In this document: piece after piece, positions 10,378 through 51,067 of the stretch
How the letters are laid out: every line of letters starts with the position of its first letter
Numbering within the stretch: position 1 is the first letter of the stretch
NCBI GenBank assembly: GCA_963666835.2
Contig: CAXXGO010000003.1
Span: forward strand, 512,001 to 576,000
Direction of reading: 5' to 3'
DNA length: 64,000 nucleotides
Origin: Phycisphaerae bacterium
GTDB lineage: Bacteria; Planctomycetota; Phycisphaerae; UBA1845
The notes under the pieces: model-generated
The model's input: only the letters and a program-made list of their open reading frames with translations
Database searches by the model: none
What the model was told of the DNA's origin: nothing
Translations under genes and position numbers: made by a program

Positions 10378-10531
10378 GTTACGCCCTCTCTTCATCCACG
10401 CCCCGCGGTTCACCGCGCGAGGACTGCAAACTGCCTTGACCGGCCACGACCAAGATCCTAGATTGGAATGAACTTAAGGCTATTGATCCCCCTCACGGTC
10501 GTCAAGCCATTCGGGCCGGAGATGCTGTATC

Positions 10532-20600: not shown

Positions 20601-21956
20601 TCCGAATACGCGTTGGCCTCCCCGGCCATAGCTTCCGCCGACGGGCTCAGTGCTGCGGATGAAGCGTTCGTCAATCCGGTTCCGGAAGAATCGGGCGGGA
20701 TCGCGGCGGCGAGCACGCTGACGATCGATTACTCGGTCGGCGTAGCGGACGGCAGTTTGATCGTCGGGGAGAACGACGTGCTCTCGCTGGCGTTGTCGTC
20801 GCTGGCCTACCCGCCGAAGGACCAGGCTTGCACCAGTTGCCACCCGATGGCGGTGGTCGCGGGGATGGTATGGTTCGACGATCGGGACGTACACTATGCC
20901 AAGTTCAACAACCTCAACGACGAGGATCCTGAGAACGACATTCCCGCCAACGAGAGCCGAGTCTGTACGGAGTGTCACGAGGGCGAACTGGACCACAACG
21001 TGGGCAAGGGTAACGCCTTCAATCTCCAGTTCCGTGACGAGTTGGACTATGCGAACGATTTCCGGTCATGCCGCGAGTGCCACCTTTCGGACAGCCCGGT
21101 GCGTCACGAAGACGCTCCGGAAGTCCCCGGTGATTTGAACATTCACGCGGTGCCGCCGTACGAGGTCCTCGCCTGCCAGGCGTGCCACGTGCCTTACGCT
21201 TTGACCGCCGGTCTGCTCTTCAGAGACAGTACCGTTCCCGGCAGCGTCGGCTGGACCCACCAGTATTACTCGGAAGATCCGCTGAATCCGGCGGCGGTGG
21301 ACGGCGACAGTCGCTGGTATCCGCCGTTTATGCTCAAGAAGGACAGCGATGGAGTCGAGCGTTGGTTCCCGGCCAGTGTCTGGATCATGCACTACTTCGG
21401 TGATTGGGACACTAACGGTACCCCGGGCGACTACACCGACGACACCGTCACTCCGCTGTATACCTGGCGAGTGGCTCAGGCCATTGCCAACGCCGCCACC
21501 GATCCGTGGCTGGCGGTAACCGACGCGGACGGTGACGGGCGCAACGAGATCAACACGCCCGAGGAGATTCTGACGTTCATCCAGGCCCTCAAGGGTAACG
21601 ACGACAACGGCGTGCAGGTCGCGGCCAACCCGGTGCTGGTCCGCGGTAAGCGGTTCTTCTATCAGGACCCGGCCGACTCGCACAATGTGCTGTCCCTCAA
21701 TTACGTCGGCAAGGGCATCGCCATGGAGGAATGGTACCCGTACATCTGGGGCATGGACCACAACGTGCTGGCCAAGGAAGAGTCGTGGGGCTACGGATCG
21801 CTTCCGGAGCGGAGTTGCAACGACTGCCACCGGGCTCTGACCCACGATTCCCCGGTCTTCGCTCGTAAGATCCTGGTCGACCCGTGCGACGAGAACGGTC
21901 AAGCCGTCTACGAGACCATGACCGACTTCACCGGCCTGGACCCGGACAACCCCTAG
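17616..21956 (+). CDS. Secreted 16-heme c-type cytochrome (tandem duplicated octaheme unit) with N-terminal dockerin/EF-hand-like domain
   Basis: Signal peptide; DFDVNGYVDLTDF and DADRDGDVDFADF; unit 1 has CGDCH, CSGCH, CLLCH, CVSCH, CSECH, CRDCH, CQACH, CLDCH; unit 2 has CGGCH, CSGCH, CLLCH, CTSCH, CTECH, CRECH, CQACH, CNDCH. Confidence 0.93.
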   Translation: MLRFCAKYVVLMSLVAIGTPVATGTPAVDDQWDFDVNGYVDLTDFRFFEECFAVSGVRDEIPPVCLALFDADRDGDVDFADFAGFQNARGHTPIPLKDSLGSAITINSSVPYSPRQTCGDCHDHDADEVANGEWFQQGRTDLAGNVDMADDYYGDGRYWIKSAGRYGKWGQSFQFMLAAKDNHRASDIDQSAYAWVRDCSGCHSGGGPGEFDRDNQPFYDEASGQFGYELLGYSAGDVTLDGDYCVLDRTSGTVSPAPWDETGLSEPDCLLCHRADRTNGGSDTIQANRSNTLAAGNSLTDGGGAPVPAFAAASTAGQGWYSSFSKPASAIAATEGMTTADVAFLEAHDQSRGGIAAASTLDINYNTGVTDGSLTVGNNDEVFLSPDSVSLKTADRACVSCHPLAVVAGEVWFDDRDIHYRKFNNLNDEDPDNDIPAERSTVCSECHPTGLDHNAAKGNSFQLQYRNELDWENFRSCRDCHLTDSPVRHPDAPHVPGTQTIHNVPPFDILSCQACHIPYALTAGLLFRDITVPGSVGWTHQYYSENPLDPTLEDSDSRWYPPLQLKEDSDGVKRWFPASVWIMFYFGDWDDNGTPGDLSDDVIAPIYTWRTAQATANVPAGVLQDDDGDGRGEINTPAEILAYLTALRGNDSNGVPFAANPVLVRGPRVFYEDPANPGTVLSFEHEGTGIPMTSYPYIWGMDHNVLPQEEAWGHAADPFAGCLDCHPADGELSPVFDRLILVDPLDEHGQTIYKTVKELTDLNPHPQMVLKDSLGNPITVDSTVPYSPRQTCGGCHDHEADEVANGEWFQQGRTDVDGNVDMADDYYGDGRYWTKSSGRYGQWGQTFQFMLAAKDNTRPSDIDQSTFAWIRDCSGCHAGGGPGEFDRDDQLLYNEITGEFGYELLGKSAGDVALDGDYCVVDGSTGQASLAPWDETGLSEPDCLLCHREDRDNGGSDTIQAKRSNTLAAANNLVNGAGEPVPGFAAAPTAGQGWYSEYALASPAIASADGLSAADEAFVNPVPEESGGIAAASTLTIDYSVGVADGSLIVGENDVLSLALSSLAYPPKDQACTSCHPMAVVAGMVWFDDRDVHYAKFNNLNDEDPENDIPANESRVCTECHEGELDHNVGKGNAFNLQFRDELDYANDFRSCRECHLSDSPVRHEDAPEVPGDLNIHAVPPYEVLACQACHVPYALTAGLLFRDSTVPGSVGWTHQYYSEDPLNPAAVDGDSRWYPPFMLKKDSDGVERWFPASVWIMHYFGDWDTNGTPGDYTDDTVTPLYTWRVAQAIANAATDPWLAVTDADGDGRNEINTPEEILTFIQALKGNDDNGVQVAANPVLVRGKRFFYQDPADSHNVLSLNYVGKGIAMEEWYPYIWGMDHNVLAKEESWGYGSLPERSCNDCHRALTHDSPVFARKILVDPCDENGQAVYETMTDFTGLDPDNP
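17901..21944 (+). repeat. Intragenic tandem duplication, about 2.0 kb units (17901-19907 and 19923-21944)
   Basis: Both units start LKDSLG..IT..S.VPYSPRQTCG; offset 2022 nt; long identical DNA stretches such as gtagccaacggcgagtggttccagcaagg and ttcccggcagcgtcggctggacccaccagtattactc. Confidence 0.95.
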
Positions 21957-21973
21957 ACTTCGGCCGTCGTTCC

Positions 21974-22002
21974 CCGGCGCGGGGCCCCTCGCCCCGCGCC
22001 GG
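21974..22002. terminator. Perfect 12-bp GC hairpin just after the cytochrome stop codon
   Basis: CCGGCGCGGGGC-CCCTC-GCCCCGCGCCGG; no T-tract, so it may be a stabilising hairpin or REP-like element. Confidence 0.45.
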
Positions 22003-22105
22003 TAACGAGGCCCGACACCAACAGCACAACCCCAAACCCGTACAACCCGCGTACCGGTTGCCATGGTCCACGCTGGCGTGGCCATGCCGCCCAGGCGGCA
22101 GCCCG

Positions 22106-22193
22106 GTAGGGCACGGTCGAGGCACGAGACCTGCCACAACGATGCACGTCGCGCAAGGACCACGGCAGGTCTCGTTCCTCGACCATGCCCTAC
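22106..22193. repeat. GTAG-type REP inverted doublet (REPIN-like)
   Basis: GTAGGGCACGGTCGAGGCACGAGACCTGCC (22106-22135) and inverted copy at 22164-22193 (2 mismatches); a third direct copy lies at 22425-22453. Confidence 0.8.
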
Positions 22194-22373
22194 ACCTGCC
22201 GCGTGGCTCGCGGAACCAGCCCGCCAGGGCGGCAGGTCTGCCTAGCCCGCGGCTTACGCCGCGGGGCTGGAGGACCTACCGCCCCAAGGGACTTGATGCC
22301 ACCCTGCGATCTCCCAACTACGCCGACATCGACAAGCAAGCCGGTCCGCGGAGCGGCCCCTACCTGCTACGCG

Positions 22374-23771
22374 TCAAGCCCCACGGGTCAACAAGTTGAC
22401 CCGTGACACCCAGGTGTCATCCCGGTAGGGCACGGTCGAGGTACGAGACCTGCGTCGCGCAGGAACAATCCCGCCGTCTCGAATCGTCCCCAACGGCGCA
22501 ATCCGCCGGTTCTGTCCGTTCGAATCCCATTCAATCGTCCCGCCGACACCGGACCACGGACTCAATCCTCGAACGCTATCGCGAATCGCTTCACGATCGA
22601 GACCCGCGCGGCGGATCGCCGCGATGGTCAGAGTCATTGCGTCGTATGACAGCACGGCCGTGTAGTCCGGGGCAGCACCGAACCGGTCTCGAAACCGCTG
22701 TACGAAAGACGCCGCCTCGGCACCGGCGCCCGCTCCGTCCCACAACATCGGAAACACCAGGCCCCCGGCGGACTCCCCGGCCAGGCTGATGAAAAGCCGA
22801 TGCCCCATGCGCGGTCCGCCATAGACCGGCATCGAGAATCCGGCTTGGCGAAGAGTGATCAGGAACCGGGCCGCGTCTTCCGGGCCGGCGATTACTACGA
22901 GACCCTCCCAATCACGCCGCTTCGGGTAGCACAGGCTTCCAGCCTGCCCCTCTGCGCCCCCTTGACACGGGAGCAGGCTCTCAAACGACCTTGCCGAAGG
23001 CGGCACCGGTTCGGCATCCGGCGTCTGCTGCCCGATCGTCCCGCCATCGAACCCCGCGGCCGGGTCCGCTGACCCGTGAGCTTCTGCACCTCCAATACGA
23101 AGAGCCTCAAGCTGCGTACGAAAACCCGCAACCCCCGGCCTGAATTTCACATGACGAACCGGAAAGACCTTGCGATCCTGCAAAGCGGCAAGCAGCTCCG
23201 CCGTGAAGATCCGCGAGTCGTGATCGGTACAGGAAACTACGGCGACGCGGTCCGTATCATGCACAATGGCCTCGGCCAGAGCCTGTGCCAGAACATCGTC
23301 GCTGGGGGCACATGAAAACACCCACGGCACGTTGGCCAGGTTGGCGGTAGGATCAGTCGCCACCGGGCTGACGAAGGTAAGACGTGCCTTGGCCACGACC
23401 TGCTCGACCAGATGTGCCGAGGGCCCATCGGGCGCCCCGACTATGGCCCAGACCCCCTCGTCGTATGCCATCCGGGTGACCCCCACTATCCCCGAGCCCC
23501 ACGGATTCTGCGACCAGGAAGGCACAAGCCGAAACGGACGCCCTGCGAACCCCCCGCCCGCGTTAGCTTCCTCAACAGCCAGCTCGGCCGCGCCCCACAT
23601 CCCCCCTGCCAACGGGTGGTCCGCATCCGCCGGACCGTACCACCCGATCCGCACTTCGGAGTCTGCGGCCGGCCCGGCTCGCCCGGACGAGTCATCGCCG
23701 GCGCCCCCCGCCAGGAGTATTAAGACCGGCAAAGTCGCCCGCCCGTACCGGGATAGGCTCACAAAACGCAC
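22374..23771 (-). CDS. LivJ/LivK-like periplasmic binding protein (type I fold) with an insertion of about 59 aa
   Basis: VRIGWYGP, AAELAVEEANAGGG, VWAIVG, NVPWVFSCAPSD, FRDRFGAAPDYTAVLSYDA, GVGGTIEWDSNG. Confidence 0.85.
   Translation of the reverse strand: MRFVSLSRYGRATLPVLILLAGGAGDDSSGRAGPAADSEVRIGWYGPADADHPLAGGMWGAAELAVEEANAGGGFAGRPFRLVPSWSQNPWGSGIVGVTRMAYDEGVWAIVGAPDGPSAHLVEQVVAKARLTFVSPVATDPTANLANVPWVFSCAPSDDVLAQALAEAIVHDTDRVAVVSCTDHDSRIFTAELLAALQDRKVFPVRHVKFRPGVAGFRTQLEALRIGGAEAHGSADPAAGFDGGTIGQQTPDAEPVPPSARSFESLLPCQGGAEGQAGSLCYPKRRDWEGLVVIAGPEDAARFLITLRQAGFSMPVYGGPRMGHRLFISLAGESAGGLVFPMLWDGAGAGAEAASFVQRFRDRFGAAPDYTAVLSYDAMTLTIAAIRRAGLDREAIRDSVRGLSPWSGVGGTIEWDSNGQNRRIAPLGTIRDGGIVPARRRSRTSTVPYRDDTWVSRVNLLTRGA
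22382..22453. repeat. Palindromic REP-like elements overlapping the 3' end of the upstream CDS
   Basis: Perfect inverted repeat CACGGGTCAAC-AA-GTTGACCCGTG (22382-22405) plus a GTAGGGCACGGTCGAGG copy (22425-22453). Confidence 0.7.
22926..22947 (+). repeat. GTAG-type REP inside a coding region
   Basis: GTAGCACAGGCTTCCAGCCTGC; near-identical intergenic copy GTAACGCAGGCTTCCAGCCTGC at 51046-51067. Confidence 0.7.
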
Positions 23772-23787
23772 GGGCCGGCCCCTTCTT

Positions 23788-25293
23788 CTAACGGTCCGCC
23801 GCGACTGTCTTACGATTCACCCGGTCGCGGGGGTGAATAACACCTTGAGGAACCAGCCAATCCTCGCGGGAGTAGTATTGATAGGCTCCGTTTTCTACTC
23901 TGGCGAAGAAAACCTCCCCCGCGTCATCGAGGCAAGCGCTGAGCGGAATCTCCCCCGTGACTCCGACAAACGGTGCCGGCCGGTGGGCGATGACATCCCT
24001 GATCTTGGCCCGGTTCAGCCCAGCCGTCTGTACCGCCCAGATCAGCATATTCATGCCATCGTAGCCGTGGGCGGCGTAAGTGTCGGCGTCGGCGCCGAAG
24101 CGTTCCCGGAACTTGCGGTGGAACTCCGCAAGTAGCGGATCGTCACGCTGCGGATCCCACGGGTAGCCCCCGATCACGCCTTCCGCATTCGCCCCGGCCA
24201 GTCTGATGAACTCCTGGGATACGCACCGATCACACACGAAGAACGGCTGGTTCATCCCGCGCACCCGCATCTCGTTGAGAATATATGCCCCATCCTCGGC
24301 ATCGCCCCAATGGACGATCGCTTCGAGATTACTGTTATCAAGGCGATCCAACTGCAGGGTGTAATCGCCGCCCCCCACCTGATAGGCCATCTCGAGCACG
24401 ATGGGTTGCCCGAGTCGGCGGGCGCCGTCGCGAATCTCGCGCACGCCGAACCGCCCATACCGATTGCTCGCCCGGATGATCCCAACCCGGCGAAGCCCCA
24501 GCTTGCGGTAAATATAGTCCACCAGCATGTATCCCATTCGCCGGTCATCGCCGATGCATCGGATGACCCACGGAATGTTCGTTTCGATAAACGTCGGATC
24601 GGTATCCCCGCTGTTGACCATGACAACTTCAGCCTTCAATGCCACTCGAATGGCAATATGACTGTTGGCTCCGTCGATCGTGCCGAGAATGGCCCAGACC
24701 CCATCCCGGTAGGCCATCTTGACAATCTCGTTACCCGACGCCCCCCACAACCCGTTGTCGTTCGAGATCACCAGCTCGAACGGAATGTCACGTTTGCGGT
24801 ATCCGCCGGACTCGTTGGCCTGCTCAATCGCCAGCCGCGCCCCGCGGAGCATGGCAATCCCGAGAATCTCTTCATGGCTCTTGCCTCCCGTCGCCACGGA
24901 AACCGTCGACATGATCGGCCCGATGAAGCCGATTTTTACGGTATCCACGTCATCCGGCTCGGGGATCGCCCGGCCCGGCCCCGTATACTCCATCTGCTCG
25001 AGAAAATGCTCCTTGAACGGGGTGACATGTCGGAAGGGTTCCACATCGACGGACGATCCGCCGTAGTTGTTGTCCTTCTGAAGTTCGAGCTTCGGCACTT
25101 CGTAAGGTCCGACGTCGATGACCTCCAGAAGTTTCTCTATGCCGGCGTCCGGCGATTCACTTATATCACCGGTTGTTTTCGCCACCCCGGCGTTATCGCC
25201 TTCAGACGCAGAATCCGCGAAAGCTGAAGCCGCACTCATCAAGACCGACCCGATTCCGATGACGGCCCACACTGCCATTCTATTGGTGTTCAT
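23788..25293 (-). CDS. LivJ/LivK-like periplasmic binding protein with N-terminal extension
   Basis: Signal peptide; VKIGFIGP, GARLAIEQANESGG, VWAILG, YAAHGYDG, FVGVTGEI; ATGA overlap with the upstream gene. Confidence 0.88.
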   Translation of the reverse strand: MNTNRMAVWAVIGIGSVLMSAASAFADSASEGDNAGVAKTTGDISESPDAGIEKLLEVIDVGPYEVPKLELQKDNNYGGSSVDVEPFRHVTPFKEHFLEQMEYTGPGRAIPEPDDVDTVKIGFIGPIMSTVSVATGGKSHEEILGIAMLRGARLAIEQANESGGYRKRDIPFELVISNDNGLWGASGNEIVKMAYRDGVWAILGTIDGANSHIAIRVALKAEVVMVNSGDTDPTFIETNIPWVIRCIGDDRRMGYMLVDYIYRKLGLRRVGIIRASNRYGRFGVREIRDGARRLGQPIVLEMAYQVGGGDYTLQLDRLDNSNLEAIVHWGDAEDGAYILNEMRVRGMNQPFFVCDRCVSQEFIRLAGANAEGVIGGYPWDPQRDDPLLAEFHRKFRERFGADADTYAAHGYDGMNMLIWAVQTAGLNRAKIRDVIAHRPAPFVGVTGEIPLSACLDDAGEVFFARVENGAYQYYSREDWLVPQGVIHPRDRVNRKTVAADR

Positions 25294-26540
25294 GATCCAT
25301 GACTCCCCTCGCCCGATGAGGGCTTCTCTCGGTCGATGTGATTAGTGGCTCGCAGCCGCGGGTAGTAGCCCCGCCCTATCGCGTGCCCCAGTCCTTTGGA
25401 AGTGCCGAGCCAGGCGTCGTCGCCATCGAACTCAGCCCAGAGTACATAGTTGTGCGGCAGACTCATGCCGGTATCAACCTCGGCCAGCACTTCGGTACCG
25501 CGCTGAATGACCGCCTTCCCCCGGTGGTTGATCTGATCGCATGTATAGGTCACCCACGTGTCACTTTCGAAGTCAGCCACGACCCCGAGCCCTTTATCGG
25601 TGCAGAACCACGCCTCGTAGGCGGATCGCCCCTTGACGGCGTTGTTGAAGTCGCTGGGAAGCCCGCACTCGTGGGCGAAGTACCCGCGCCAGTGCCGCCC
25701 ATCGTACCGGCAGGCCCCGAAGTACGTGGTCACCCAGAGGATCTTCTCAACGTAGCTCACTCCCGTGGTGATTACGTGAACAACCCCGTCGTCGCGGTAC
25801 AGGTCGATCTCCATCTCACCATCCGGATCGAGATAATCCTTCCAGGTTCCCCGCTCAATGTCATATTCCAGCACCCCACTGCCCCAGATCCCCAGATAGA
25901 CCAACCCGTCCGCGTAGCAGCATCCGTAGTTCCAGATCTCTTCCATCGGAGCGTTTTTCTCGGTGAAGATCGACCATTCCCCGGTGACCGTGTTGTACCG
26001 GCTGGCCCCGGCCGTAGTAGCCGCCCAGATGTTGTCGTGCTCCACCGCAACGCCGTAGATCACATCATTAACCACCCCGCTGTTGAGCTGATGCCAGTGG
26101 TCGAAACGCCCCCCGCTAAAGCGGGCCAGCCCGCCCCCGAACATGCCGATCCAGACCTCTCCGGTACCGGGATGCACGTCAATTGCCGAGACGACCCGCC
26201 AGGGCAGCCCGTCCTCCTCGGTCCAGCTCTGTATCCTGCGGGTCTTCTTGTTGAGGCAGGCCAGCCCCCCTTCCGTACCGATCCACACCCGGTCGCCATC
26301 GACCTTAACAGCAAAAACGTGGTCGTTGGGCAGGCCGTCCTTCGTTGAGAACCGCTCCCACTCCGTGTACACGAACGGCAGGCCGAGCGCGTCCGCGGTT
26401 CCTCCCACAGCGGCGGCAGCGGCGGCCACCGGCCTCGCTTCCCCAGGCTCATCGGAATCTCCGCGCGCAGACGACACCGCAAGAAGTGCCACACAAACGC
26501 CCAATGCTCTGCTTCGGGTATGCTTAAACGAACTAATCAT
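25290..26540 (-). CDS. Secreted beta-propeller protein (two-component-regulator propeller-like repeats)
   Basis: Signal peptide; repeats DGLPNDHVFAV..WIGTEGGLA, DGLPWRVVSAI..WIGMFGGGLA, GLPSDF, SLPHNYV..WLGTSKGL. Confidence 0.8.
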   Translation of the reverse strand: MISSFKHTRSRALGVCVALLAVSSARGDSDEPGEARPVAAAAAAVGGTADALGLPFVYTEWERFSTKDGLPNDHVFAVKVDGDRVWIGTEGGLACLNKKTRRIQSWTEEDGLPWRVVSAIDVHPGTGEVWIGMFGGGLARFSGGRFDHWHQLNSGVVNDVIYGVAVEHDNIWAATTAGASRYNTVTGEWSIFTEKNAPMEEIWNYGCCYADGLVYLGIWGSGVLEYDIERGTWKDYLDPDGEMEIDLYRDDGVVHVITTGVSYVEKILWVTTYFGACRYDGRHWRGYFAHECGLPSDFNNAVKGRSAYEAWFCTDKGLGVVADFESDTWVTYTCDQINHRGKAVIQRGTEVLAEVDTGMSLPHNYVLWAEFDGDDAWLGTSKGLGHAIGRGYYPRLRATNHIDREKPSSGEGSHGS

Positions 26541-26608
26541 CTTACTGCCCTCCGGTTACTGCCGAGGCCGTTACCAAAAAGCGTGCTACGTTTCTTCTTC
26601 CCGAACCG

Positions 26609-29470
26609 CTAGAGTGTCTTAAGATACTCCATAAGGTCGTTCAACTGGTCCTTGGTCATATCGTTGGTTACCCCGTGTTCGTCGTACGGGTTGAACCTCG
26701 TCCAGATCTCCTCGAGAGTCTCGGCGGTTCCGTTGTGCAAATACGGCGCCGAGTCGTAAATGTTGTTAAGGTGAGGCACATCGAATTCGGCCTCGCGATC
26801 CATCATCATCTTCGTACCGACATCCCGCACCGTTCGATCCGTGAACAACGGCGCAAAGTGGCAAGTGGCACAGCGGTTCTCTTCGGGAATCACTTTCCCG
26901 TCGTTGCCGACGGTTCGCTCAAAGACGGCTTTGCCGCGCCTTTGCGCAGGAGTCAACTTCCCCCCCACCGGCCGATATCGGTTTGGCGGACGCGGGATCG
27001 TGCAGATGTAGTTGTCCAGCGCCGCCAGCTCCTCCGGGGTGAACGGGTCGATCCTGGTAAAGAACACGGCCAGTCGCGGACCGCATTGCCGTTGCAGACT
27101 CGGATTCGTCCCCTCCCATTTGAAAGGAGCGGTATCCAGGATTCCGCGCAGCGTACGGTTGTCCACGGGGCTGCTCCCGATTCCGTCCGGTTCAATGTCG
27201 TACGTCAGACCGTCAATATGCCCGTCCGGATGGCACGAATGGCAGGAGAACTGGCGGTGGAACGTCACGTCGGCACTATGAAAAAGCAGCTCACCCCAGC
27301 GCACCTTGGTAATCGTCTCCGGACCACCCAAGTCGATCCGCCCCGCCGCCTCCAAACGGGGTACGTCAATCACCGTGATGGAATCGTCCAACGCGTTGGC
27401 GACAAAGGCCAGCCGTCCGTCCTTCGAGAAGAGCACCCCTCGCGGGCTGTTCCTGGTTTCAATGTGCTTGAGAATGAACTCCGTCGGTTTTCCAAGATGG
27501 TTCGGGAGAACATGCTCCAACTCATACTGACTTGCCCCGCGGAGCATCGTAATCAGCTTATCGACATCGATAACCGCGACCCGATCGGACCCGCTGCTGG
27601 TTACGAAAGCCAGCTTACCGTCCGGGCTGATTGCCACACCGGCCGCATCCGGAAAACACAGGTGCGGCTCGTCAAGCAGAACCTGATTGACCCTCCCGTC
27701 GCGCCAGATCACGCCCATCCCATTGGTGATCGTCCAGCCCTGCAGTAGCCTAGTCATCGGAACGAGGTTCTTGGTTCGGTTCAGAGTAATCAGTGCAAAC
27801 TCCCCGGACGGGTGCCAGGCGATACCCTGCATCAAGTTAGCTCCCGGCACCGTTATCCGCTGCTCCACCGCCTCCCGCCGGGTGTTGATAATCGTGACTT
27901 CCGACAGCGACGGCTCACGGAACTCCACAAACCGCGAAAGGGTGTTGGTGCAAGCGATTCGCTCTCCGTCGGGGCTCAGTGCTGCGGCCCACGGTCCCCG
28001 ACTACCGGTCAGGCGCTTCTTTTCTGTCCCGGTATCCCCATCAATCACCGAGATGCTGTCCGCAGAGGTGTTCAATACGTAGACGACCCGACCGGCCTGG
28101 TCCATCAGAACCCCGTGCGGTTCGTCCCCAACTTCAACGGTTTTCAGAACCGTGCGGCTTTGCGTATCCACCACCACCATCGTGTCATCCAAGCGGTTCG
28201 TCACAAATGCGCGCGTCCCGTCCGGACTGAAGGCCACCCCGGTAGGCTGCCCTCCCGTTGTAATCTCCGCCACCGCTCGCCGTGACGCCACATCGACTAC
28301 CACCACGGAGTCGGACGCCTCGCATGCTACGTACAATTCAGTTCCATCTGGAGAAAGCGCGAGGTTTAGCGGCGTCTTGTAGCGTTGGGCTTGGGTCCCT
28401 TCCTTCAGTGTTTCCGCGCGCAACGGATGGCTGATCTTCTTCATCTTGGCGGTATAATCGAAAGACGATCCGTCATCTGAACCGTGGCACGGTGCGCACG
28501 TCTGCGCAGTAACGGGCAGCAGTCCGGCCTGCCGCGCGGCGGGCGGGTCGCGCATGACGGCTTCCACCGCGTAGTCACTGCCGGGTCCGTGACAGGCCTC
28601 ACACTGCACTCCGTCGAGCAGATCGAAACCGGGCAGCGCCGGGGCCGCCCCTTTGCGCACACCGGTTGCGTGGCATACCAGGCACTCCTGCAACTCCTGC
28701 GGAACGCCCCTTGCCCCGGCCTTCTCCGCCGCCTGATAGCCCGCCGGCGTGCCTAGCACCGCATAAGCTGCGGCATGCCCGCTGTCCCGCCACTTGCTGA
28801 ACTGGTAACCCATCATAGGCCCCTTGTGGCAGCCCGCGCATTTCATAACCCCGACGTATCCCCTTGTGCCTGAAGCCGGCTTATTCTCCGGGCGGGCTGT
28901 TGCCGCCGCCCCATCGTTGGGCGTCGGGTGGGCGATCTTCTTCATTCCCATCGCCACGTCCAACTGCGGCGCACTGAGCACCGCCACATGCGAGCCTTTC
29001 ACATTGTGGCACATCATGCAATCGCGCGGCCGCGGCATTCGCAGGCCCGCCATCATGGCCTTCTCCCGGTCCATCATTACTTCGTTGTTCGCATATTCGC
29101 TGCCAGGACCGTGACATGTCTCGCATTGCACCCCGTCTTCAAGAAGGAACTCGTCTTCCTTCTCCCACGCCTCCACCCTCGAGCCCGTAGCGTGGCACCC
29201 CAAGCACATGGCGGATTCCTGCGGTTCCTCGGGGATCCCGCTGAGCTCGGCGATCTTCTTGGACTGCGGGCTCCACAGGCAGGCGTAAGCTCCCGAATGG
29301 GCCGACGCCCGCCATAGACCGACCTGATGACCGGCCGCTTTTCCCGCGTGGCATTTGGCGCAGGCTCTGACACCTACGTATATGGGATGCCGGTCGTGGA
29401 CGCCGGGATCCGAAGCCGACGCCAAACTCGCCACGACCCCCACACAGACAACCAAAACGCCCAATCGCAT
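26609..29470 (-). CDS. 10-heme fusion: two c554-like tetraheme domains + YVTN beta-propeller + CcP/MauG-like diheme domain (HzsB/HzsC-like architecture)
   Basis: Signal peptide; CAKCH, CLGCH, CETCH, CMMCH; CAGCH, CLVCH, CEACH, CAPCH (each unit YVGV..C..CH, W..S.H..AY, GVQCE.CHGPGS.Y); YVACEASDSV/FVTNRLDDT/YVLNTSADSI propeller blades; WGELLF..SCHSCHPDG, RGKAVF..CATCH, PHLNNIYDSAPYLHNG. Confidence 0.88.
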   Translation of the reverse strand: MRLGVLVVCVGVVASLASASDPGVHDRHPIYVGVRACAKCHAGKAAGHQVGLWRASAHSGAYACLWSPQSKKIAELSGIPEEPQESAMCLGCHATGSRVEAWEKEDEFLLEDGVQCETCHGPGSEYANNEVMMDREKAMMAGLRMPRPRDCMMCHNVKGSHVAVLSAPQLDVAMGMKKIAHPTPNDGAAATARPENKPASGTRGYVGVMKCAGCHKGPMMGYQFSKWRDSGHAAAYAVLGTPAGYQAAEKAGARGVPQELQECLVCHATGVRKGAAPALPGFDLLDGVQCEACHGPGSDYAVEAVMRDPPAARQAGLLPVTAQTCAPCHGSDDGSSFDYTAKMKKISHPLRAETLKEGTQAQRYKTPLNLALSPDGTELYVACEASDSVVVVDVASRRAVAEITTGGQPTGVAFSPDGTRAFVTNRLDDTMVVVDTQSRTVLKTVEVGDEPHGVLMDQAGRVVYVLNTSADSISVIDGDTGTEKKRLTGSRGPWAAALSPDGERIACTNTLSRFVEFREPSLSEVTIINTRREAVEQRITVPGANLMQGIAWHPSGEFALITLNRTKNLVPMTRLLQGWTITNGMGVIWRDGRVNQVLLDEPHLCFPDAAGVAISPDGKLAFVTSSGSDRVAVIDVDKLITMLRGASQYELEHVLPNHLGKPTEFILKHIETRNSPRGVLFSKDGRLAFVANALDDSITVIDVPRLEAAGRIDLGGPETITKVRWGELLFHSADVTFHRQFSCHSCHPDGHIDGLTYDIEPDGIGSSPVDNRTLRGILDTAPFKWEGTNPSLQRQCGPRLAVFFTRIDPFTPEELAALDNYICTIPRPPNRYRPVGGKLTPAQRRGKAVFERTVGNDGKVIPEENRCATCHFAPLFTDRTVRDVGTKMMMDREAEFDVPHLNNIYDSAPYLHNGTAETLEEIWTRFNPYDEHGVTNDMTKDQLNDLMEYLKTL

Positions 29471-29499
29471 CGTACTGCACCCTCCCGGCCGGCCGGTAG

Positions 29500-31125
29500 T
29501 CAGCCCTTCTCCTGGATTACGCTGAGAATCTGCCTGCTCGCCACGTCCTTCAGTACGGTCGTTTCGCCGTTAGGCCAGCGGATCTCGACCCGGTCGACCT
29601 TGTTTGCATCCTTGAGCCCGAAGTGGGCCCGCGGATCGCTCCGCGAAAGATACCCGGTTACCCCCGCCACTTCGCACACCCGACGACTCTCGCCCACAAT
29701 CGCGGTGACCCGTGCGCCAATGGCGTCAGCCCCGCTCCCAGCGAGCTTCGGCGCGACGGTCAGCCAGTGGTTCCGATTGCCGCCGTCATTACGCAGGAGC
29801 CTGGCCGGTCCGTTGAGGTTCATCACAAGAATGTCAATGTCCCCGTCATTATCGTAATCCGCCACGGCCGCACCTCGGCCCACGTACTTCTCACGGAAGT
29901 AACTCCCCGACCGATCCGCAACATCGACGAACACCCCGTCGCCACGGTTTCTAACCAGGACGTCCTCCTCACTGTACTCGTGGTGGGCGTTGCCGTTGGC
30001 TACGAAAATATCTAATAAGCCATCGTTGTCGTAGTCCAACAGCCCGCCGCCCCAGCCGGTGTACTGCCCGCAGATGACCGCCAGATTGCTCGGAGCAGTC
30101 ACGTCAACGAACCAATCCCCCTTCCGCAACAGCAGACAACCGTACCCCATGTCAGGAATGTAAACGTCGAGCAGGCCGTCGCGATTCACGTCCCCGACGA
30201 CCGGGCCCATTGACGATGCCCCCTGTCCGCCTTCCCCAAACGCCAGCCCCCAATCCAACGTCTCGTTTCGAAAGGTCCCCTTACCGGTGTTGACAAAGTA
30301 CGCATTTGGCGTGGCATCGTTGGTGACGTAGAGGTCGATCAGACCATCGTCGTTCAGATCAGTCGCAACCGCGCTCATCGCCCGTCCGTCCGGATAGAAG
30401 ACTCCGACCTCTTTCGAAACTTCCGAGAAACTGCCGTCACCGTTGTTGCGGTAGAGTCGGTCGGGATGCGCTCGGTAGCTCAGCGGCCCCGGATAGCCGG
30501 CGGCCGGGTAGAAATCGCGGAACTGCCCTGCGTCGTACTCAAGGTAGTTGGCCACGTAGACATCCAGATCCCCGTCACCGTCATAATCCAGCCACGGGGC
30601 GGAGAGACTCCACAGCGGATCAGCCAAGCCCGATTCCGCAGAGGCGTCGGTGAACGTACCGTCGCCGTTATTGCGGTAGAGCACGTTGGGACCGTAGTTC
30701 AACACGTACAGATCAACATCGCCGTCGTTGTCATAATCCGCCGCCGATACGCCAATCCCATACCCCTGATCGCCCACCTTGGCCTTGTCTGTAACGTCGA
30801 CGAAAGTGCCGTCACCGTTGTTACGGTAGAGCCGATTCGACAGTTGGCCGCGCAAGTCGCGTCCCAGGTTATCGTTGACCTCGCGCCGCCAGCAGGCGTT
30901 CACCAGGTAGATGTCGAGAAGACCATCCCCGTCGAAATCGAAGAACGCTCCGCCCGGACCGGTCCCTTCGACGATATTGCTGAGGTTGCGGTCTCCGAAG
31001 CTGTGTTTGAACTCAAGGCCCGCCTGCTCGGTCACATCGGTGAAGACCGGCAGCGGAGCATCCTCTCCGGCCGCCGCACATGCCGCCAACATCGTGACAC
31101 ACCATGCCTTGCCGATGGTTCTCAT
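29500..31125 (-). CDS. CRTAC1/ASPIC-UnbV FG-GAP repeat protein
   Basis: FTDVTEQAGL, repeated DYDNDGDxDLYV, AIGARV, DPRAHFGL, VEIRWPNG; ATG 31125 overlaps the upstream TGA (ATGA). Confidence 0.9.
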   Translation of the reverse strand: MRTIGKAWCVTMLAACAAAGEDAPLPVFTDVTEQAGLEFKHSFGDRNLSNIVEGTGPGGAFFDFDGDGLLDIYLVNACWRREVNDNLGRDLRGQLSNRLYRNNGDGTFVDVTDKAKVGDQGYGIGVSAADYDNDGDVDLYVLNYGPNVLYRNNGDGTFTDASAESGLADPLWSLSAPWLDYDGDGDLDVYVANYLEYDAGQFRDFYPAAGYPGPLSYRAHPDRLYRNNGDGSFSEVSKEVGVFYPDGRAMSAVATDLNDDGLIDLYVTNDATPNAYFVNTGKGTFRNETLDWGLAFGEGGQGASSMGPVVGDVNRDGLLDVYIPDMGYGCLLLRKGDWFVDVTAPSNLAVICGQYTGWGGGLLDYDNDGLLDIFVANGNAHHEYSEEDVLVRNRGDGVFVDVADRSGSYFREKYVGRGAAVADYDNDGDIDILVMNLNGPARLLRNDGGNRNHWLTVAPKLAGSGADAIGARVTAIVGESRRVCEVAGVTGYLSRSDPRAHFGLKDANKVDRVEIRWPNGETTVLKDVASRQILSVIQEKG

Positions 31126-33104
31126 TCCGTAACTCCACGCGCTAGCCCGGCATCCGTGGCGGGCCCCACCTCTTGTTCTGGAATGCCATCCCAATGAGCA
31201 CCCAGATCAATCCACTCGATAAGTGTCGCCTTTTCGGCATTAGATAGCTGCTTGGCCTCCGCCGGCGGGCACTGCGAAACCGCTTGCCCGCTCCCCATCG
31301 CCGCATCCTCAGAACTCACGGTGTTCCGCCCGAAGAGCCGCCAGACCAGCGGACTGGTTCTGGCCTGTCCCGGGTGGATGTACTTGCCCCTGACCGGATC
31401 GCTCCCCGCTACCGAATCCTCTACACCTTCAAGAAGAGCAGCGTACACTTGATCGGCTCCCCCCGTCGGCTTTAGCTCCAGATCAAACTCACGGGCTGAA
31501 TCACCGTGGCACCCCATGCATTTCCGCTCGATAATCGGCATGACCTCGCGTCGAAAGTCAACGGTCCTTCGTTTCAGAGCCGGCAGGGTCAACCGCGTGG
31601 CCGGGCGTCGCAGAGCCGCCACGAGCCGGTTCTCCGGAGTCAGTTCCGGATCTTCGTGGCAGCCGATACAGCCCCGCGGCTCGCGATGCTTCACCCAGAT
31701 CCACCCGGAGCTTGCCAAAGCCAACCCGTCAGCATCCAACGTCTGCAACTGAACCGGCAGGTCAGCCGGTATTTCTATCTGAAAGGAGCCGTCCTCCTCA
31801 ATCGGCGCCACCCCCAACAGCCGCTTGCGCACCACCGGAGGCCACATCTGTAGCGAGTCGGAGATTCGTTCACCGGCCCGCGCGGGAACGCCCTCAATCA
31901 CGCGCAATGTTCGGGTCGTACCGGCCAGCATGCGTGGGGCAGCCGAGGGATCGGTAAGGTTTGCGTTCAGGCAATACAACTGGCCCGTCGGGTACTTCTC
32001 GTTAACTACGCTCGAACGTCCGTCCGGCTGACACCGCGGCGTCAACACCTTGGCGTGAATATCATGATAAACGGGATCATCGAAAAGAAGGTGGCTTCCG
32101 CCGGTACGCGGATCAAACTCCCATAACCCATGCGTCTCACTGGCATCGGCCGGCCGACGGGACACCACAATACTCCCGCCCGGAAGCGGCGTCGGAGAAT
32201 GGTACAACAGCGAAACATCGTTCGTTAGACTCCGGTAGGAGTGATGATTGCGTCGAACCGAGACGGCCGCAAGCTGCCCCGCTCCGTCCCAGCCGACCCG
32301 GTCCGCCTCGACGAACACCACCAGTCCGTCCTCGGTTGCGCAGGGCATGTGTTTGATTCGGCGCCCTTGATCGCCGCAGAACAGAGCGTAATCAGCGCCA
32401 TCCGTGTTCACTCCGAAAAGCGATATGCGTCCCCAGAAACCGCGACGCAAATCCGCCCGTTGGCCGCCGGCGTGCAGAACCCGCCCATCGTTCATCAGGA
32501 ACGGATCCAAGTCATCGCTGAGGTTCGCCGTCAACCGCCGCATCGATGTGCCATCCAACCGGCAACTGTAGAGGCTCATCGCGGCGCCGGAGCCCCACTC
32601 GTTCAACGCCCCCGCAGCATCGCTGGCGAACATCACCTGAAACCACGGTTCGGTCGAGACAATGGTGTAGAGCGTAGACTGATAGGCAGGCTGGCGGCAA
32701 TTGCCGTGATCTCGCGTGACTTGGCGCTTCCCAGTTCCGTCGGCGTTCATCTCCCAAATGTCCCAGGGATCCCCCTGCCGCCGTTTCGCCGCAAAGAGGA
32801 TCCGGTCGGCGTCAAACGAGACGTCCAACTCCCCCGCGCCGGCGAACTGCTCGGTAAGAACGCGCAGCCGCCCGTCCGGTTCCAGGCGAACGATTCGCCC
32901 GCCGTCACCATAATCGGCCCGGAGCATTCCCCCTGCCCGCCCGGACAGACCCCGGCTCGCCGTCACCGGAAGCTGCAGAAAGACCACCGGGTGCTCCAAG
33001 GGATAGTCAGAGCTCGGCAAAGCCTGCACCAGACCCGCCCCCGAACCGACGACAACAATCGCCGCAGCCAAGACGGACCGATATCCCTTCAACACTCCGC
33101 TCAT
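31122..33104 (-). CDS. Hydrazine synthase alpha-subunit-like protein (TolB-like propeller + HZS-alpha middle domain + 2 hemes)
   Basis: Signal peptide; DVSFDADRILFA, WDIWEMNADG, DLDPFLMNDGRVL; LLGVAPIEEDGSFQIEIPADLPVQLQTLDADGLAL...W...EPRGCIGCHE; TVDFRREVMPIIERKCMGCH; PGQARTSPL; LIEWIDLGA. Confidence 0.82.
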   Translation of the reverse strand: MSGVLKGYRSVLAAAIVVVGSGAGLVQALPSSDYPLEHPVVFLQLPVTASRGLSGRAGGMLRADYGDGGRIVRLEPDGRLRVLTEQFAGAGELDVSFDADRILFAAKRRQGDPWDIWEMNADGTGKRQVTRDHGNCRQPAYQSTLYTIVSTEPWFQVMFASDAAGALNEWGSGAAMSLYSCRLDGTSMRRLTANLSDDLDPFLMNDGRVLHAGGQRADLRRGFWGRISLFGVNTDGADYALFCGDQGRRIKHMPCATEDGLVVFVEADRVGWDGAGQLAAVSVRRNHHSYRSLTNDVSLLYHSPTPLPGGSIVVSRRPADASETHGLWEFDPRTGGSHLLFDDPVYHDIHAKVLTPRCQPDGRSSVVNEKYPTGQLYCLNANLTDPSAAPRMLAGTTRTLRVIEGVPARAGERISDSLQMWPPVVRKRLLGVAPIEEDGSFQIEIPADLPVQLQTLDADGLALASSGWIWVKHREPRGCIGCHEDPELTPENRLVAALRRPATRLTLPALKRRTVDFRREVMPIIERKCMGCHGDSAREFDLELKPTGGADQVYAALLEGVEDSVAGSDPVRGKYIHPGQARTSPLVWRLFGRNTVSSEDAAMGSGQAVSQCPPAEAKQLSNAEKATLIEWIDLGAHWDGIPEQEVGPATDAGLARGVTE

Positions 33105-33307
33105 TTCCTATGTCTGCCCCCCTGCAATACGGGGTTCCTGAACCAAAGCCGCGAACACACCCGCAAGGAGCGAGTCTGATAAGTTTACCCCAACCGCGCA
33201 AGCCGAACCAGCATTATCACCGCGGAGCCGTTACCACGAGTTGCGGGTTTACCTGGCCCCGATATGCGCCGGCGCCGAAGACACCGCACCGCACGAAAGC
33301 GCGGCAG

Positions 33308-33322
33308 GCCGGATTCGTGCCA
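33308..33322 (-). promoter_or_regulatory. Possible sigma54 -24/-12 promoter of the hzs-like operon
   Basis: Minus strand TGGCACG-AATC-CGGC: perfect -24 box, GG-N10-GC spacing, imperfect -12; about 200 nt upstream of ATG 33104. Confidence 0.35.
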
Positions 33323-33402
33323 GACTGTCCTCCGATTGCCGACGGGAGACGATCGAGCGCCACCGTTATCACTTGGCCTGTCCGCCCGGGTCCCATCATT
33401 CC

Positions 33403-35454
33403 CTATCGCGGACTGCTGATGTGCTCGGTGAAAACCCGGTAGTCAGACAGGTCAATGTCCTGGTCGTCGTCGAAATCGAACTTCAGCCAGTACTTCAGGT
33501 CCGGCTCCTCGTATTGGGGCCACTCCTTGCTACCGCTGAAGCCGGTTTGCATGACGGCGAAATCTCTCAGATCGAGATCGCCGTCATCGTTGAAGTCCCC
33601 AAGCAAACACCCCTCGCGGCAAGGATCGGCAATACAATCCGGAACGCCGTTCTGTAACACGCACAAGTCTGGCGGGTAGTCCATCAGACAGTAGGTTCCG
33701 TCACTCCAGCAGCACTCCCCAAACAGCGGGCAAACGCAGACCCCGCCGGCGGTAGTCTCCGGGCAGAGATCTAAGCAGTCGTCGAGCCCGTCACCGTCAG
33801 TATCCGCAGGAAAAACGCAATCGTCCGGGATTCCGTTGCCGTCACAGTCGTCCTCGCATCCGTCCGGAATCGTGTTGTCGTTGCAATCCCGGCACCACAA
33901 CGACTCATCACAGTCCCGAATATCGCATTGATCCGCGATGCCATTACCGTTGCAGTCCGGTTCGCACTCGTCCGGAACCACGTTATTGTTACAGTCGATA
34001 CTCCCGCCACAAGGCGGCTCGCAATCATCTGCATCGCAGTCGACGTCACACCGATCGGCAATACCGTTTCCGTTACAGTCAAGCGACTCGGGTCTTGGGC
34101 CGATACTGAGCCCCGTCATCTCCGCTGGTGATCCCGGCTTGAACAATCCGACCGTAACCGTAATCGGCCCGGGTACGATATTGGCATCAAAGGAGAAGCT
34201 ATACAGCGTACTGAAACGCAGAGCGTTGGCATTGGGATTCTCGGCGAAACTCTCGGTCGACCAGGTCAGCGCGCCGCCTTCTTCAACGCTTGGCCAGTCG
34301 TCACCGCTATATATCTCGCCGCTGTGATAATCTACATCGTGGAACGCTATGTTCGAGATAATCGCGCCCTCGGGAAGCGGTATGCTGAACGAACCGGCCG
34401 CCCGGTCGGTGTTCAGATTCTGCAATGCGTAGGAATACCGGTATTCGCCGGTCCCAAGGTCCACCGCCTTGGCCGCGAGAATCAGAAGCCCTTCACTGGG
34501 AATCTGTAGGTCCGTTTCGACCACGGCCGGGTCCGTATCTTGCCACGCGCGCACCGCCGGTTGTTCCCATTGCGTCTGTCCGGTCGGTGTCACTACGAAC
34601 TCGTGTGCTTCTGTCTTGGTCAACATGGCCGGGCGATACGAAGCGTTGTTAAAACCGTTCCCGGCCATGGCATCCGCCGCGGTCACATAGTGGCTTTGCA
34701 GGAAGTAAGCCGCACCAGCATTCAGAGCAGGATCCAGATCTTCTTCATGAACCTGCAGCCTCTTCCCGACGATCGGCTCCGGATCAGGCGCGGTCCATGG
34801 ATATGGAAAGTACCCGGTGAATACATTCACGTCCGACCGCCTACTCATATTGGTTTGGATACCGTTGATCGACGCAGAGTGCTCGTCAGAGCAACCTATT
34901 CCGAGCGCACTTCCGTCTGTCGGGTCTTCGCATTGCCCCGGCCAGTACCCACAGAAGTTCCACGACATGGCGTACAAACAATGCGAGCACCAACTCATTC
35001 CGATCTGTTGAAACTGATCGTTCTTGAGTTGGTACATGCTCTGCACGATGATTGGGTGGTTGTTGGTGTGCGCTACCCAGCTTACCCGAGCGTCCCCCAG
35101 ATTGCAGACACGCGTGCCGACAGCATAAGCGTGGATGTCCTCGTAGGCGCCGCTGCCGTGGCCGTAATACTGAACCGATTGAAGATCCGCGACGATGACA
35201 TCAGGGCCGCCCGTGCCGGCCACTCCGCCGACCCCGATAGACGGTTCCTCCGCTGCCGCGGCCCGTGAATCGAGCCTGCTCGTCTCAACGCGCTGCGGCT
35301 CAGTCGCTGTCTTCTCCGGAAGCGTATTGCTCGGGCTGAGTACGCCCGAATCCTCGTTGATCGCCCCGAGGCAAAGAGGCAGTCCGTACGACGCGGACAG
35401 ACCTGCCGCCAAGAGACTGATAACCACGCAGTCCAAACCGCAACGTCCCCTCAT
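33403..35454 (-). CDS. Secreted Cys-rich protein (GPDVIV core + DCNxNG repeats + C-terminal dockerin/EF-hand-like tag), paralog B
   Basis: AGGAG RBS, signal-like N-terminus, DCNGNGIADxCD repeats, GDFNDDGDLDLRDF...DFDDDQDIDLSDY. Confidence 0.85.
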   Translation of the reverse strand: MRGRCGLDCVVISLLAAGLSASYGLPLCLGAINEDSGVLSPSNTLPEKTATEPQRVETSRLDSRAAAAEEPSIGVGGVAGTGGPDVIVADLQSVQYYGHGSGAYEDIHAYAVGTRVCNLGDARVSWVAHTNNHPIIVQSMYQLKNDQFQQIGMSWCSHCLYAMSWNFCGYWPGQCEDPTDGSALGIGCSDEHSASINGIQTNMSRRSDVNVFTGYFPYPWTAPDPEPIVGKRLQVHEEDLDPALNAGAAYFLQSHYVTAADAMAGNGFNNASYRPAMLTKTEAHEFVVTPTGQTQWEQPAVRAWQDTDPAVVETDLQIPSEGLLILAAKAVDLGTGEYRYSYALQNLNTDRAAGSFSIPLPEGAIISNIAFHDVDYHSGEIYSGDDWPSVEEGGALTWSTESFAENPNANALRFSTLYSFSFDANIVPGPITVTVGLFKPGSPAEMTGLSIGPRPESLDCNGNGIADRCDVDCDADDCEPPCGGSIDCNNNVVPDECEPDCNGNGIADQCDIRDCDESLWCRDCNDNTIPDGCEDDCDGNGIPDDCVFPADTDGDGLDDCLDLCPETTAGGVCVCPLFGECCWSDGTYCLMDYPPDLCVLQNGVPDCIADPCREGCLLGDFNDDGDLDLRDFAVMQTGFSGSKEWPQYEEPDLKYWLKFDFDDDQDIDLSDYRVFTEHISSPR

Positions 35455-35561
35455 CACATCGCTCCTTCCAGGGACACGGGCCATCCCCCCGGCAACCTCA
35501 ACCCGCCCTCCGGTTGTCAGCGCCCGGCAACTCAGGGCAACGGCGCCGAGCTCATCAGCGA

Positions 35562-38159: not shown

Positions 38160-38757
38160 GACATCGCTCCTTGTGGCGTCATAAGCCGACGCCGCCAATC
38201 TCAGTGCGCCCTTCTTACCCTCGCGTGATCTCGCTCCGCCTTGCGCTCGAGTCGTGCATCAGAACCATAACCCGTAGTCCCAGCCGAAACCCAACTGCAA
38301 ACTCGGCGTTACAACTGCGGAACACCTGCAGCAACCGGTCCAACGTACCAACTTCCGGATCGGCCCATTCTCCGGCCCTACGCACCCACACCCAACTGAT
38401 TCTTCGGCATAACTGCCGGCTACCGCCCAGCCAACGGCACGAGATGGGAACGGGGAGAAATAGCTCCGCCCCACTCGCGAAGCAGCCCACCCGGGTGTTC
38501 TTGCCAAACTACAACCAATAATAACAGTATTTACAGGTTTTCGCAACGATGATCCGCTCGCCCCACCTCGGCAAGCCTAATCTTGTCACCCTGCCGTCGG
38601 TGTCGCCCACGACCGCCTCGGTACCACCCTGTTCGTTATTATAGGACTATCCCCCAGCGCCCCCGTTCGCAGATCCGTCCGGTCCTCACCTTAATGTGCC
38701 GACGGCGAGCGACACGCGAAAACCACACGGTGCGTGCCTGGCGCACCTGGGTCAAGC

Positions 38758-49895: not shown

Positions 49896-50070
49896 AAGCC
49901 CAACCCAGCCAATAGTGCCAACCGCCCCGCCTGCCCAGGAAGTAGCCGGGAGCGTAGTTGTTATCAGGCATCCCCGCAACGCTCCGCGGGGAGTACTTCG
50001 GCCGCATTGTCGTCAAAGTTGAACGGGGTGCGCCCGACCTATTCCCAGCTCCGATTCGTCCCCACCCGGA

Positions 50071-50994: not shown

Positions 50995-51045
50995 GGCTAA
51001 TACTCCAGTCTTAGCCCTCCGCTCTGGGAGGGGCCAACCCCACTC

Positions 51046-51067
51046 GTAACGCAGGCTTCCAGCCTGC
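51046..51067 (+). repeat. REP element (same family as 22926-22947)
   Basis: GTAAC-GCAGGCT-TCC-AGCCTGC in the rocD-argF spacer. Confidence 0.65.

Follow-up and report, generated by a model that had tools for sequence, protein, structure and literature searches.

The window analysed here is a stretch of 64,000 nucleotides (nt) from a Phycisphaerae bacterium (GTDB lineage Bacteria; Planctomycetota; Phycisphaerae; UBA1845), taken from positions 512,001 to 576,000 of contig CAXXGO010000003.1 in GenBank assembly GCA_963666835.2; all coordinates below are those of the window. Its minus strand carries, between 22374 and 33104, a cassette of six genes, designated A to F in the order of transcription, that includes homologues of all three subunits of hydrazine synthase (HZS), the enzyme known from bacteria that perform anaerobic ammonium oxidation (anammox). 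It is highly probable that the cassette is related to HZS and yet is not a hydrazine synthase. The reaction is a much less certain matter. The best guess, a tentative one, is a multi-electron conversion of a small N-O species, of the nitric oxide (NO) or hydroxylamine type, and not the synthesis of hydrazine. With identity and chemistry blended, the explanation as a whole is moderately probable. To our knowledge, hydrazine synthase was long thought to be without relatives. The cassette is its closest kin outside anammox and occurs in several hundred species, at the least, of bacteria that abound in soils and sediments.

Homology to hydrazine synthase

Gene A (31122-33104; minus strand, as are all six) encodes 660 amino acids (aa), comprising an N-terminal propeller, an HZS_alpha middle domain (Pfam, E 3.8e-21) and two c-haem motifs, C479IGCH and C529MGCH. 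It matches chain A of the HZS structure from Kuenenia stuttgartiensis (PDB 5c2v_A, E 8.1e-48) in four stretches that span the propeller, the middle domain and the C-terminal domain.

Gene C (26609-29470; 953 aa) is a decahaem fusion with ten CXXCH motifs, eight of which lie within the first 330 residues. Residues 1-350 (28421-29470) consist of a putative signal peptide and two tandem c554-like tetrahaem modules (8 CXXCH; Cytochrome_C554, E 1e-27) that are 45% identical to one another (E 8e-38). Residues 351-705 (27356-28420) form an HzsB-like seven-bladed YVTN propeller with a blade-six loop at 565-584; propeller families of the YNCE/YVTN type are matched, and residues 365-702 align with the whole length of chain B of the same structure (5c2v_B, E 1.3e-41). 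Residues 706-953 (26609-27355) form an HzsC/MauG/CcP-like dihaem domain that contains C743HSCH, C867ATCH, Trp785 and Cys796, and residues 721-953 match chain C (5c2v_C, E 7.4e-21). For CCP_MauG (PF03150) the whole protein scores 30.1 bits against a cut-off of 25.6, with no single stretch passing alone. In the AlphaFold2 model of C, confidence is confined to the propeller, where the predicted local distance difference test (pLDDT) is ~90 over 360-720, and the top Foldseek match of the model is 5c2v_B (E 1.2e-30; template modelling score 0.89 by target length).

From the matches to the three chains of 5c2v, together with the Foldseek match, it follows that the cassette encodes homologues of each of the three HZS subunits, those of beta and gamma being joined in one protein. 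The homology of A to HzsA extends through every one of its three domains, and C combines an octahaem wire, an HzsB-like propeller and an HzsC-like dihaem domain. An earlier note on this DNA, made by a model from the sequence alone, had recognised in A the propeller, middle domain and two haems of HzsA, and had proposed searches with HZS_alpha, CCP_MauG and Cytochrome_C554 models, all of which gave the matches cited above. It had described C as a YVTN propeller fused to a CcP/MauG-like dihaem domain; both parts were correctly identified, but the N-terminal octahaem module, with eight of the ten CXXCH motifs, had been overlooked.

The remaining four genes agree with the assignments made earlier. 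Gene B (29500-31125; 541 aa from an ATG, with an alternative TTG-start open reading frame (ORF) extending to 31194) encodes a CRTAC1-type FG-GAP/ASPIC-UnbV propeller protein (FG-GAP_3, E 7e-52 in six stretches; UnbV_ASPIC, E 6.7e-21), in which a possible lipobox, LAAC, was noted by eye. Gene D (25290-26540; 416 aa) encodes a single Reg_prop-type propeller. Its Reg_prop match is weak, and its closest structures (PDB 4a2l_A, E 6.5e-27; 3v9f_A, E 1.9e-17) reveal a resemblance to the ligand-binding periplasmic propeller domain of Bacteroides hybrid two-component sensors. Gene E (23788-25293; 501 aa, with an N-terminal extension of ~110 aa) encodes a distant LivJ/HAAT-type periplasmic binding protein (Peripla_BP_6, E 1.5e-34; PDB 4mlc_A, E 2.9e-17, and other LivJ-like chains). 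Gene F (22374-23771; 465 aa, GTG start) encodes a second and more divergent protein of this type (Peripla_BP_6, E 2.1e-36; PDB 4mlc_A, E 3.5e-16) with a low-complexity insert. E and F are each other's only paralogue in the host genome. The cassette encodes no permease, and the LivHM-type permease (BPD_transp_2) is absent from 6 of 27 carrier genomes, including the two with chromosome-labelled loci (G401 and G402; loci L014 and L016). The host genome has three BPD_transp_2 permeases, all on contigs other than that of the cassette. Since the cassette lacks a permease and some carriers have none, E and F are read as ligand-binding subunits and not as components of an importer.

The tight spacing claimed in the earlier note is borne out. 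The stop of A and the start of B overlap in an ATGA that can be read directly, as do the stop of D and the start of E, and the remaining intergenic gaps are 29, 68 and 16 nt. Purine-rich stretches precede most of the starts. All six products have a hydrophobic N-terminal stretch, and to this extent, as read from the sequence, all six appear to be secreted, as had been proposed. Promoter and terminator scans over 21800-33600 yielded sites no more numerous than in shuffled sequences. The GC content of the operon (61.7%) matches that of the genome (61.2%), and therefore nothing suggests that the operon was recently imported.

The likeness to HZS extends to the predicted quaternary structure. When the beta-gamma part of C (residues 351-953) and the middle and C-terminal domains of A (residues 355-660) were submitted to complex prediction, a score of 0.77 was obtained, compared with 0.00 for the best control; no fewer than 70% of the contacts are shared between runs, and the pLDDT of the partner does not fall below 69. 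Of 157 solved complexes, 116 attained this mark, as did 2 of 215 mismatched pairs. The confident contacts join residues 476-494 of A, i.e. the haem-I motif and its invariant Glu-Asp-Pro-Glu tail, with residues 565-582 and 653-660 of C, the former being the counterpart of the blade-six loop of HZS. The alpha/beta-gamma interface sought by the earlier note is thus predicted. A complex of this kind (5c2v) has already been solved, however, and the pass may therefore reflect resemblance to it alone; it indicates likeness, not binding. An HZS-like docking of A with the beta-gamma part of C is accordingly supported by a model only.

In summary of the comparison with the Kuenenia enzyme, the cassette shares with it a three-domain alpha subunit with two c-haems, a seven-bladed beta propeller with a blade-six loop, a MauG/CcP-like dihaem gamma subunit with a third haem-binding Cys, and the predicted alpha/beta-gamma contact at the loop. 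It differs in its low identity (~25-31%), its reversed gene order, the extra octahaem module and the four extra conserved partner genes.

Against these likenesses stand the scores, the residues and the gene content of the host. All cassette scores with the NCBIfam equivalogs (NF052339, NF052340, NF052341 and NF052342) are below the cut-offs, at about a quarter of them or less: gene A scores 202.5 bits with hydrazine_alpha (cut-off 800), and gene C scores 214.6 bits with hydrazine_BC (cut-off 1250), 165.7 bits with beta (560) and 90.4 bits with gamma (625).

For the residues, hzsA, hzsB and hzsC references were drawn from the three anammox genomes in a sample of 401 genomes of the phylum. One of these sets has exactly the published Kuenenia numbering (alpha C303, H587, S590, Y591 and H772; gamma C102, H106, H144 and C165). 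In HZS, Tyr591 is the proximal ligand of alpha haem I, and His587 and Cys303 belong to a zinc site (PMC12607021, PMC12758564). In the alignment of the three anammox HzsA with gene A and ten relatives, the latter eleven read CIGCH-EDPE; they have nothing facing alphaSer590/Tyr591 and lack both the Cys of alpha 303 and the His of alpha 772. In gene C, both gamma haem motifs are retained, Cys796 corresponds to gammaCys165, and Trp785 occupies the position of gammaHis144; Trp785 and Cys796 are present in 51 of 51 relatives. The Glu pair of the Kuenenia beta loop faces Arg574 and Leu576. Compared with anammox HZS, the cassette therefore lacks the Tyr591/zinc site, His772 and the loop Glu, and has Trp in place of gammaHis144, while its host lacks a hydrazine dehydrogenase (HDH).

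The host genome (6.02 Mb in 7 contigs, 92% complete) has one copy each of A, C and D. No match to PF13447, the family of hydroxylamine oxidoreductase (HAO) and HDH, was found in it, compared with 13 and 10 matches in two anammox controls (G132 and G281, respectively). In the 401-genome sample, anammox genomes were found only elsewhere in the host's phylum and none in its class, and the nearest homologues of A are labelled Phycisphaerales. The GC content of the hzs loci of the anammox genomes is 45-54%. The earlier description of the host as an apparently non-anammox planctomycete is thus upheld, there being neither a true HZS nor an HAO/HDH-family gene.

Conservation, distribution and published relatives

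Homologues of A are numerous. A word-indexed protein search gave 1678 at E <= 1e-5 among 8000 scored candidates, and an exhaustive search of representatives at 50% identity gave 4985, 2145 and 454 at E <= 1e-3, 1e-10 and 1e-30, respectively. In a scan of one genome per GTDB species there were at least 596 pattern matches, and at least 546 species encode a relative. Within a sample of 301 genomes of the host's class, an A-like gene at E <= 1e-30 occurs in 19, including the genome of the window. In the host's family, 5 of 12 genomes have a match and only two of these are orthologues (63% identical), which indicates a patchy distribution.

Synteny was assessed in the best 80 of these at least 546 relatives, which were found by the motif CIGCHED from A. 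Because both loci and ORFs were picked by this motif, its invariance in the locus set is partly circular and is independent only in alignment A1. By label, the 80 loci comprise 53 from Planctomycetota, 21 from Acidobacteriota, three from Verrucomicrobiota, one from Anaerolineales and two unlabelled, all of them from metagenome-assembled genomes (MAGs). The proteins of the window were searched against the loci by tblastn, and for each gene only loci with enough downstream flank were counted. With A as the query for all 80 loci (median identity to the window 50%), B was found in 70 of 70 (67%), the N-terminus of C in 61 of 61 (51%), its beta part in 58 of 58 (65%), its gamma part in 56 of 56 (80%), D in 55 of 55 (70%), E in 50 of 50 (68%) and F in 44 of 46 (45%), the exceptions being L045 and L056. 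The order A-B-C-D-E-F is collinear in all 44 complete loci, which come from four phyla. As every related locus with sufficient flank repeats this order, chance is a most unlikely source of the arrangement, and the six genes form one conserved unit; the co-occurrence in other genomes on which the earlier note had staked its proposal is therefore found. The gamma domain, with the highest median identity, is the most constrained part, and this fits a catalytic role.

A FastTree phylogeny of the beta-gamma region was computed from the window, 50 related loci and three anammox sets, with branch support not assessed. The anammox sets sit at the end of a very long branch; within the family, sequences group broadly by phylum, and the window stands beside MAGs of Phycisphaerales. 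The comparison with bona fide HZS that had been called for thus places the cassette well apart from it.

The same type of cluster has been described twice. Hagglund et al. (2025, Genome Biol Evol; PMC12758564) grouped the co-located homologues of alpha and beta-gamma from outside anammox into four clades, with clade I being carried by, for example, Thermogutta terrifontis, Aquisphaera giovannonii, Syntrophobacter fumaroxidans, Paludibaculum fermentans and Opitutus terrae. As described there, clade I shares with the present locus an alpha gene upstream, a CRTAC1 FG-GAP gene between alpha and the fused beta-gamma, eight extra N-terminal haem motifs (two c554 domains) on beta-gamma, both alpha haem motifs, and two genes for ABC substrate-binding proteins downstream. 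The residue pattern is also shared: neither has Tyr591/Ser590, Cys303, His772 or the Glu of the beta loop, both have Trp instead of gammaHis144, and both retain gammaCys165. Two differences may be mentioned. The host here has a Phycisphaerae genome of the MAG type, whereas the only Phycisphaerae example in that paper carried clade IV, and the propeller gene D does not appear in a term search of its main text, although its figures or supplements may show it. Matched by gene order, architecture and residues as described, the locus would be one more copy of the published clade I cassette.

Dalcin Martins et al. (2023; PMC10732223) reported hzsA-like and fused hzsBC-like genes in Phycisphaerae UBA1845 MAGs and suggested a broader family of HZS-like enzymes that act on other substrates. 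Those genes share with the present locus the host class, the position of the alpha-like gene upstream of the fused beta-gamma-like gene and the failure to find an hdh gene, and their BLAST scores to the Kuenenia subunits (89-163 bits) are in a range similar to that of phmmer here (77-167 bits). In that report, however, hzsA is placed 'immediately upstream' of hzsBC, whereas here the two are separated by the FG-GAP gene and an anammox role is rejected. The name 'HzsA-related protein' is already in use at NCBI. In a limited literature search only these two papers on the family, and no functional study of it, were found.

The cluster type, being published (2023, 2025) and widespread (at least 546 GTDB species with relatives), is neither rare nor new. 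What is added here is the strict collinearity of six genes across phyla, the always-present propeller gene D, the very high conservation of the gamma domain, and the evidence that E and F are not parts of an importer.

Candidate reactions

That the cassette encodes a periplasmic complex homologous to HZS and of unknown chemistry, as the earlier note had it, is supported by the subunit homologues, the predicted interface and the co-occurrence of the genes. The further guess that the complex couples N to N is weakened by the loss of the Tyr/zinc site at alpha haem I. The two-step mechanism of HZS itself was recently corroborated (Vermeir et al., bioRxiv 10.64898/2026.02.25.707902).

If the substrate is an N-O species, the following scheme may be envisaged. 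Electrons would pass between the periplasmic cytochrome pool and haem gamma-I by way of the octahaem chain and haem gamma-II. Haem gamma-I would be the catalytic haem, cross-linked by a predicted covalent bond from Cys796. A small product would then move past the propeller loop to the alpha haem, which would have an ordinary His ligand followed by the invariant Glu-Asp. B, D, E and F would act as obligatory secreted partners, and the N-O substrate would come from the surroundings of the cell, not from denitrification by the host itself. Three features speak for N-oxide chemistry, namely that the HZS-type Cys-haem site is retained, that a c554-like wire is present and that the two-site architecture is preserved.

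A number of observations weigh against this scheme or limit its basis. Among the 27 carrier genomes, nirK is above the cut-off in none, and separate HAO-like genes occur in just 12, many of the 15 matches over the cut-off in the HAO-like search being the cassette's own C gene. A genome search of the host found no nirK, no nirS or NrfA above the cut-off, and no gene of the COX1/NorB family. By these counts there is no consistent link to known metabolism of NO or hydroxylamine. Haem-copper oxidases are present in 14 of the 27 carriers, and the cassette is therefore not tied to anoxic nitrogen cycling. The Trp at the position of gammaHis144 is the state found in CcP and MauG (PMC12758564) and also fits peroxide or radical chemistry. 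In addition, the AlphaFold2 models of A and C, built from shallow alignments of 16 and 11 rows, have a mean pLDDT of 57 and 58, respectively, with low confidence everywhere but in the propeller, and the best 80 loci cover this clade only and carry nothing on more distant relatives.

The main alternative is that the dihaem domain is an oxidant of the MauG/CcP type. It would use peroxide or oxygen, or would act as a dehydrogenase whose electrons leave by way of the octahaem wire. It would oxidise either an organic compound, such as an amine or amino acid bound by E or F, or a partner protein, such as A, B or D, a residue of which would be modified in a step of cofactor maturation. We regard this alternative as possible, though of rather low probability. 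Gene C does share with dihaem CcP and MauG two c-haems with a Trp between them, Trp785 restoring the inter-haem Trp of both (PMC12758564), as well as a C-terminal region with a PYxHxG-type motif, and the CCP_MauG match is accompanied by matches to RoxA-like, MbnH and MauG families, mostly weak. The same reading would account for two LivJ-type binding proteins without a dedicated permease, the haem-copper oxidases of about half the carriers and the lack of a link to nirK or HAO genes, and it is favoured by a chorismatase/RidA-like gene found directly upstream of A in 11 of the 27 loci with full upstream flank, although there is none at that place in the window. On the other hand, gene C differs from those enzymes in being fused to a propeller and an octahaem module, in its predicted extra Cys-haem link and in its place inside an HZS-like complex. 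The HZS-specific Cys796 is invariant and the alpha/beta/gamma architecture with its propeller loop is kept, neither of which is found in known MauG or CcP. Moreover, the cassette encodes no candidate small substrate protein, and no haem-copper oxidase was found in the host genome.

A bolder version of the N-O scheme, which we consider unlikely, is that the cassette is a hitherto undescribed enzyme of the nitrogen cycle, located in the periplasm of heterotrophs common in soil and sediment (Planctomycetota, Acidobacteriota and Verrucomicrobiota), and the living relative of the ancestor of HZS. External NO would be reduced to hydroxylamine at the Cys-linked gamma haem, and the hydroxylamine would be converted at the alpha haem to ammonium, or coupled there to an amine presented by E or F. 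If true, this would mean a new route of NO or hydroxylamine consumption, or of N-N or N-X bond formation, outside anammox. Identification of the substrate would tell from what kind of enzyme HZS arose and might uncover a sink of NO, hydroxylamine or peroxide that has so far gone unrecognised in anoxic and oxic habitats.

It is quite improbable that the cassette is a periplasmic sensor or scaffold without net turnover, in which an environmental ligand would be bound by B, D, E and F, with the haem proteins signalling or responding to redox state. The resemblance of D to the ligand-binding domain of hybrid two-component sensors (4a2l) and the lack of an importer partner for E and F would be in keeping with such a role, but the cassette has no kinase, transducer or membrane anchor, and twelve haems together with a catalytic-type domain conserved at 80% would be costly for sensing.

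Finally, that the cassette is a true hydrazine synthase and its host a cryptic anammox bacterium is extremely improbable: homologues of all three subunits are indeed co-located, a beta-gamma fusion is also known in some Scalindua (PMC10732223, PMC12758564), and a possible new anammox lineage has been weighed for Phycisphaerae UBA1845 MAGs (PMC10732223), but the equivalog scores, the missing Tyr591/zinc site, the lack of an HAO/HDH-family gene in a search whose positive controls worked, and the very long branch on the beta-gamma tree all argue against it, and PMC12758564 likewise concludes that clade I proteins cannot make hydrazine.

Neighbouring genes and minor observations

The earlier note had mentioned an uncharacterised hzs-paralogue cluster in Kuenenia for comparison. 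No divergent hzs paralogue closer to the proteins of the window was found in the three anammox genomes searched. In these genomes hzsB/hzsC occur in two or three copies of equal score and hzsA in two, all ~31% identical to the window protein, and the cluster mentioned was not found there. The report in PMC12758564 that the two hzs copies of Brocadiaceae are identical agrees with the equal scores in the genomes searched here. One of the latter (G132, locus L094) has three equal-scoring hzsB/hzsC copies compared with two of hzsA. In another (G281, locus L097), sampled from anammox family f91, hzsB and hzsC are separate ORFs of 378 and 341 aa with a gap of 62 nt, which means that the beta-gamma fusion is not universal in that family.

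In gene A, the possibility that Cys612 (~31269-31271) supplies a His/Cys distal ligand to alpha haem II was weighed and rejected, the column being too variable for a ligand to be assigned. This position, which precedes an invariant Pro-Pro, is Met in 43, Ile in 14, Cys in 9, His in 3 and other residues in 4 of 73 sequences; Cys is found in the window and the 8 closest loci, and Met in most relatives.

Downstream of the cassette and convergent to gene F lies a gene on the plus strand (17616-21956) for a secreted protein of 1446 aa with 16 CXXCH motifs in two tandem eight-haem halves. Weak matches were obtained with MtrC/MtrF domains and with the family of octahaem tetrathionate reductase. As a partner of the cassette this protein was rejected, with a single weak match in 1 of the 80 loci. 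Upstream of A, two tandem genes on the minus strand (33403-35484 and 35562-38198) encode paralogous secreted proteins of 693 and 878 aa with Cys/Asp-rich C-terminal repeats of the 'DCNGNGIADxCD' kind; they have no match in Pfam or NCBIfam and none in the related loci.

Further CRTAC1/TPR paralogues are nearby in 13 of the 27 loci with full upstream flank. The window has another CRTAC1-type FG-GAP/ASPIC paralogue, of 902 aa, at 7705-10413 (minus strand), and one more is found elsewhere in the genome (C6:1465156-1467591), 45% identical to B and adjoining a RidA-like match. Finally, the window contains at 48933-52454 (minus strand) an ordinary run of arginine-biosynthesis genes, for an amino-acid kinase, an ornithine carbamoyltransferase and a class-III aminotransferase.

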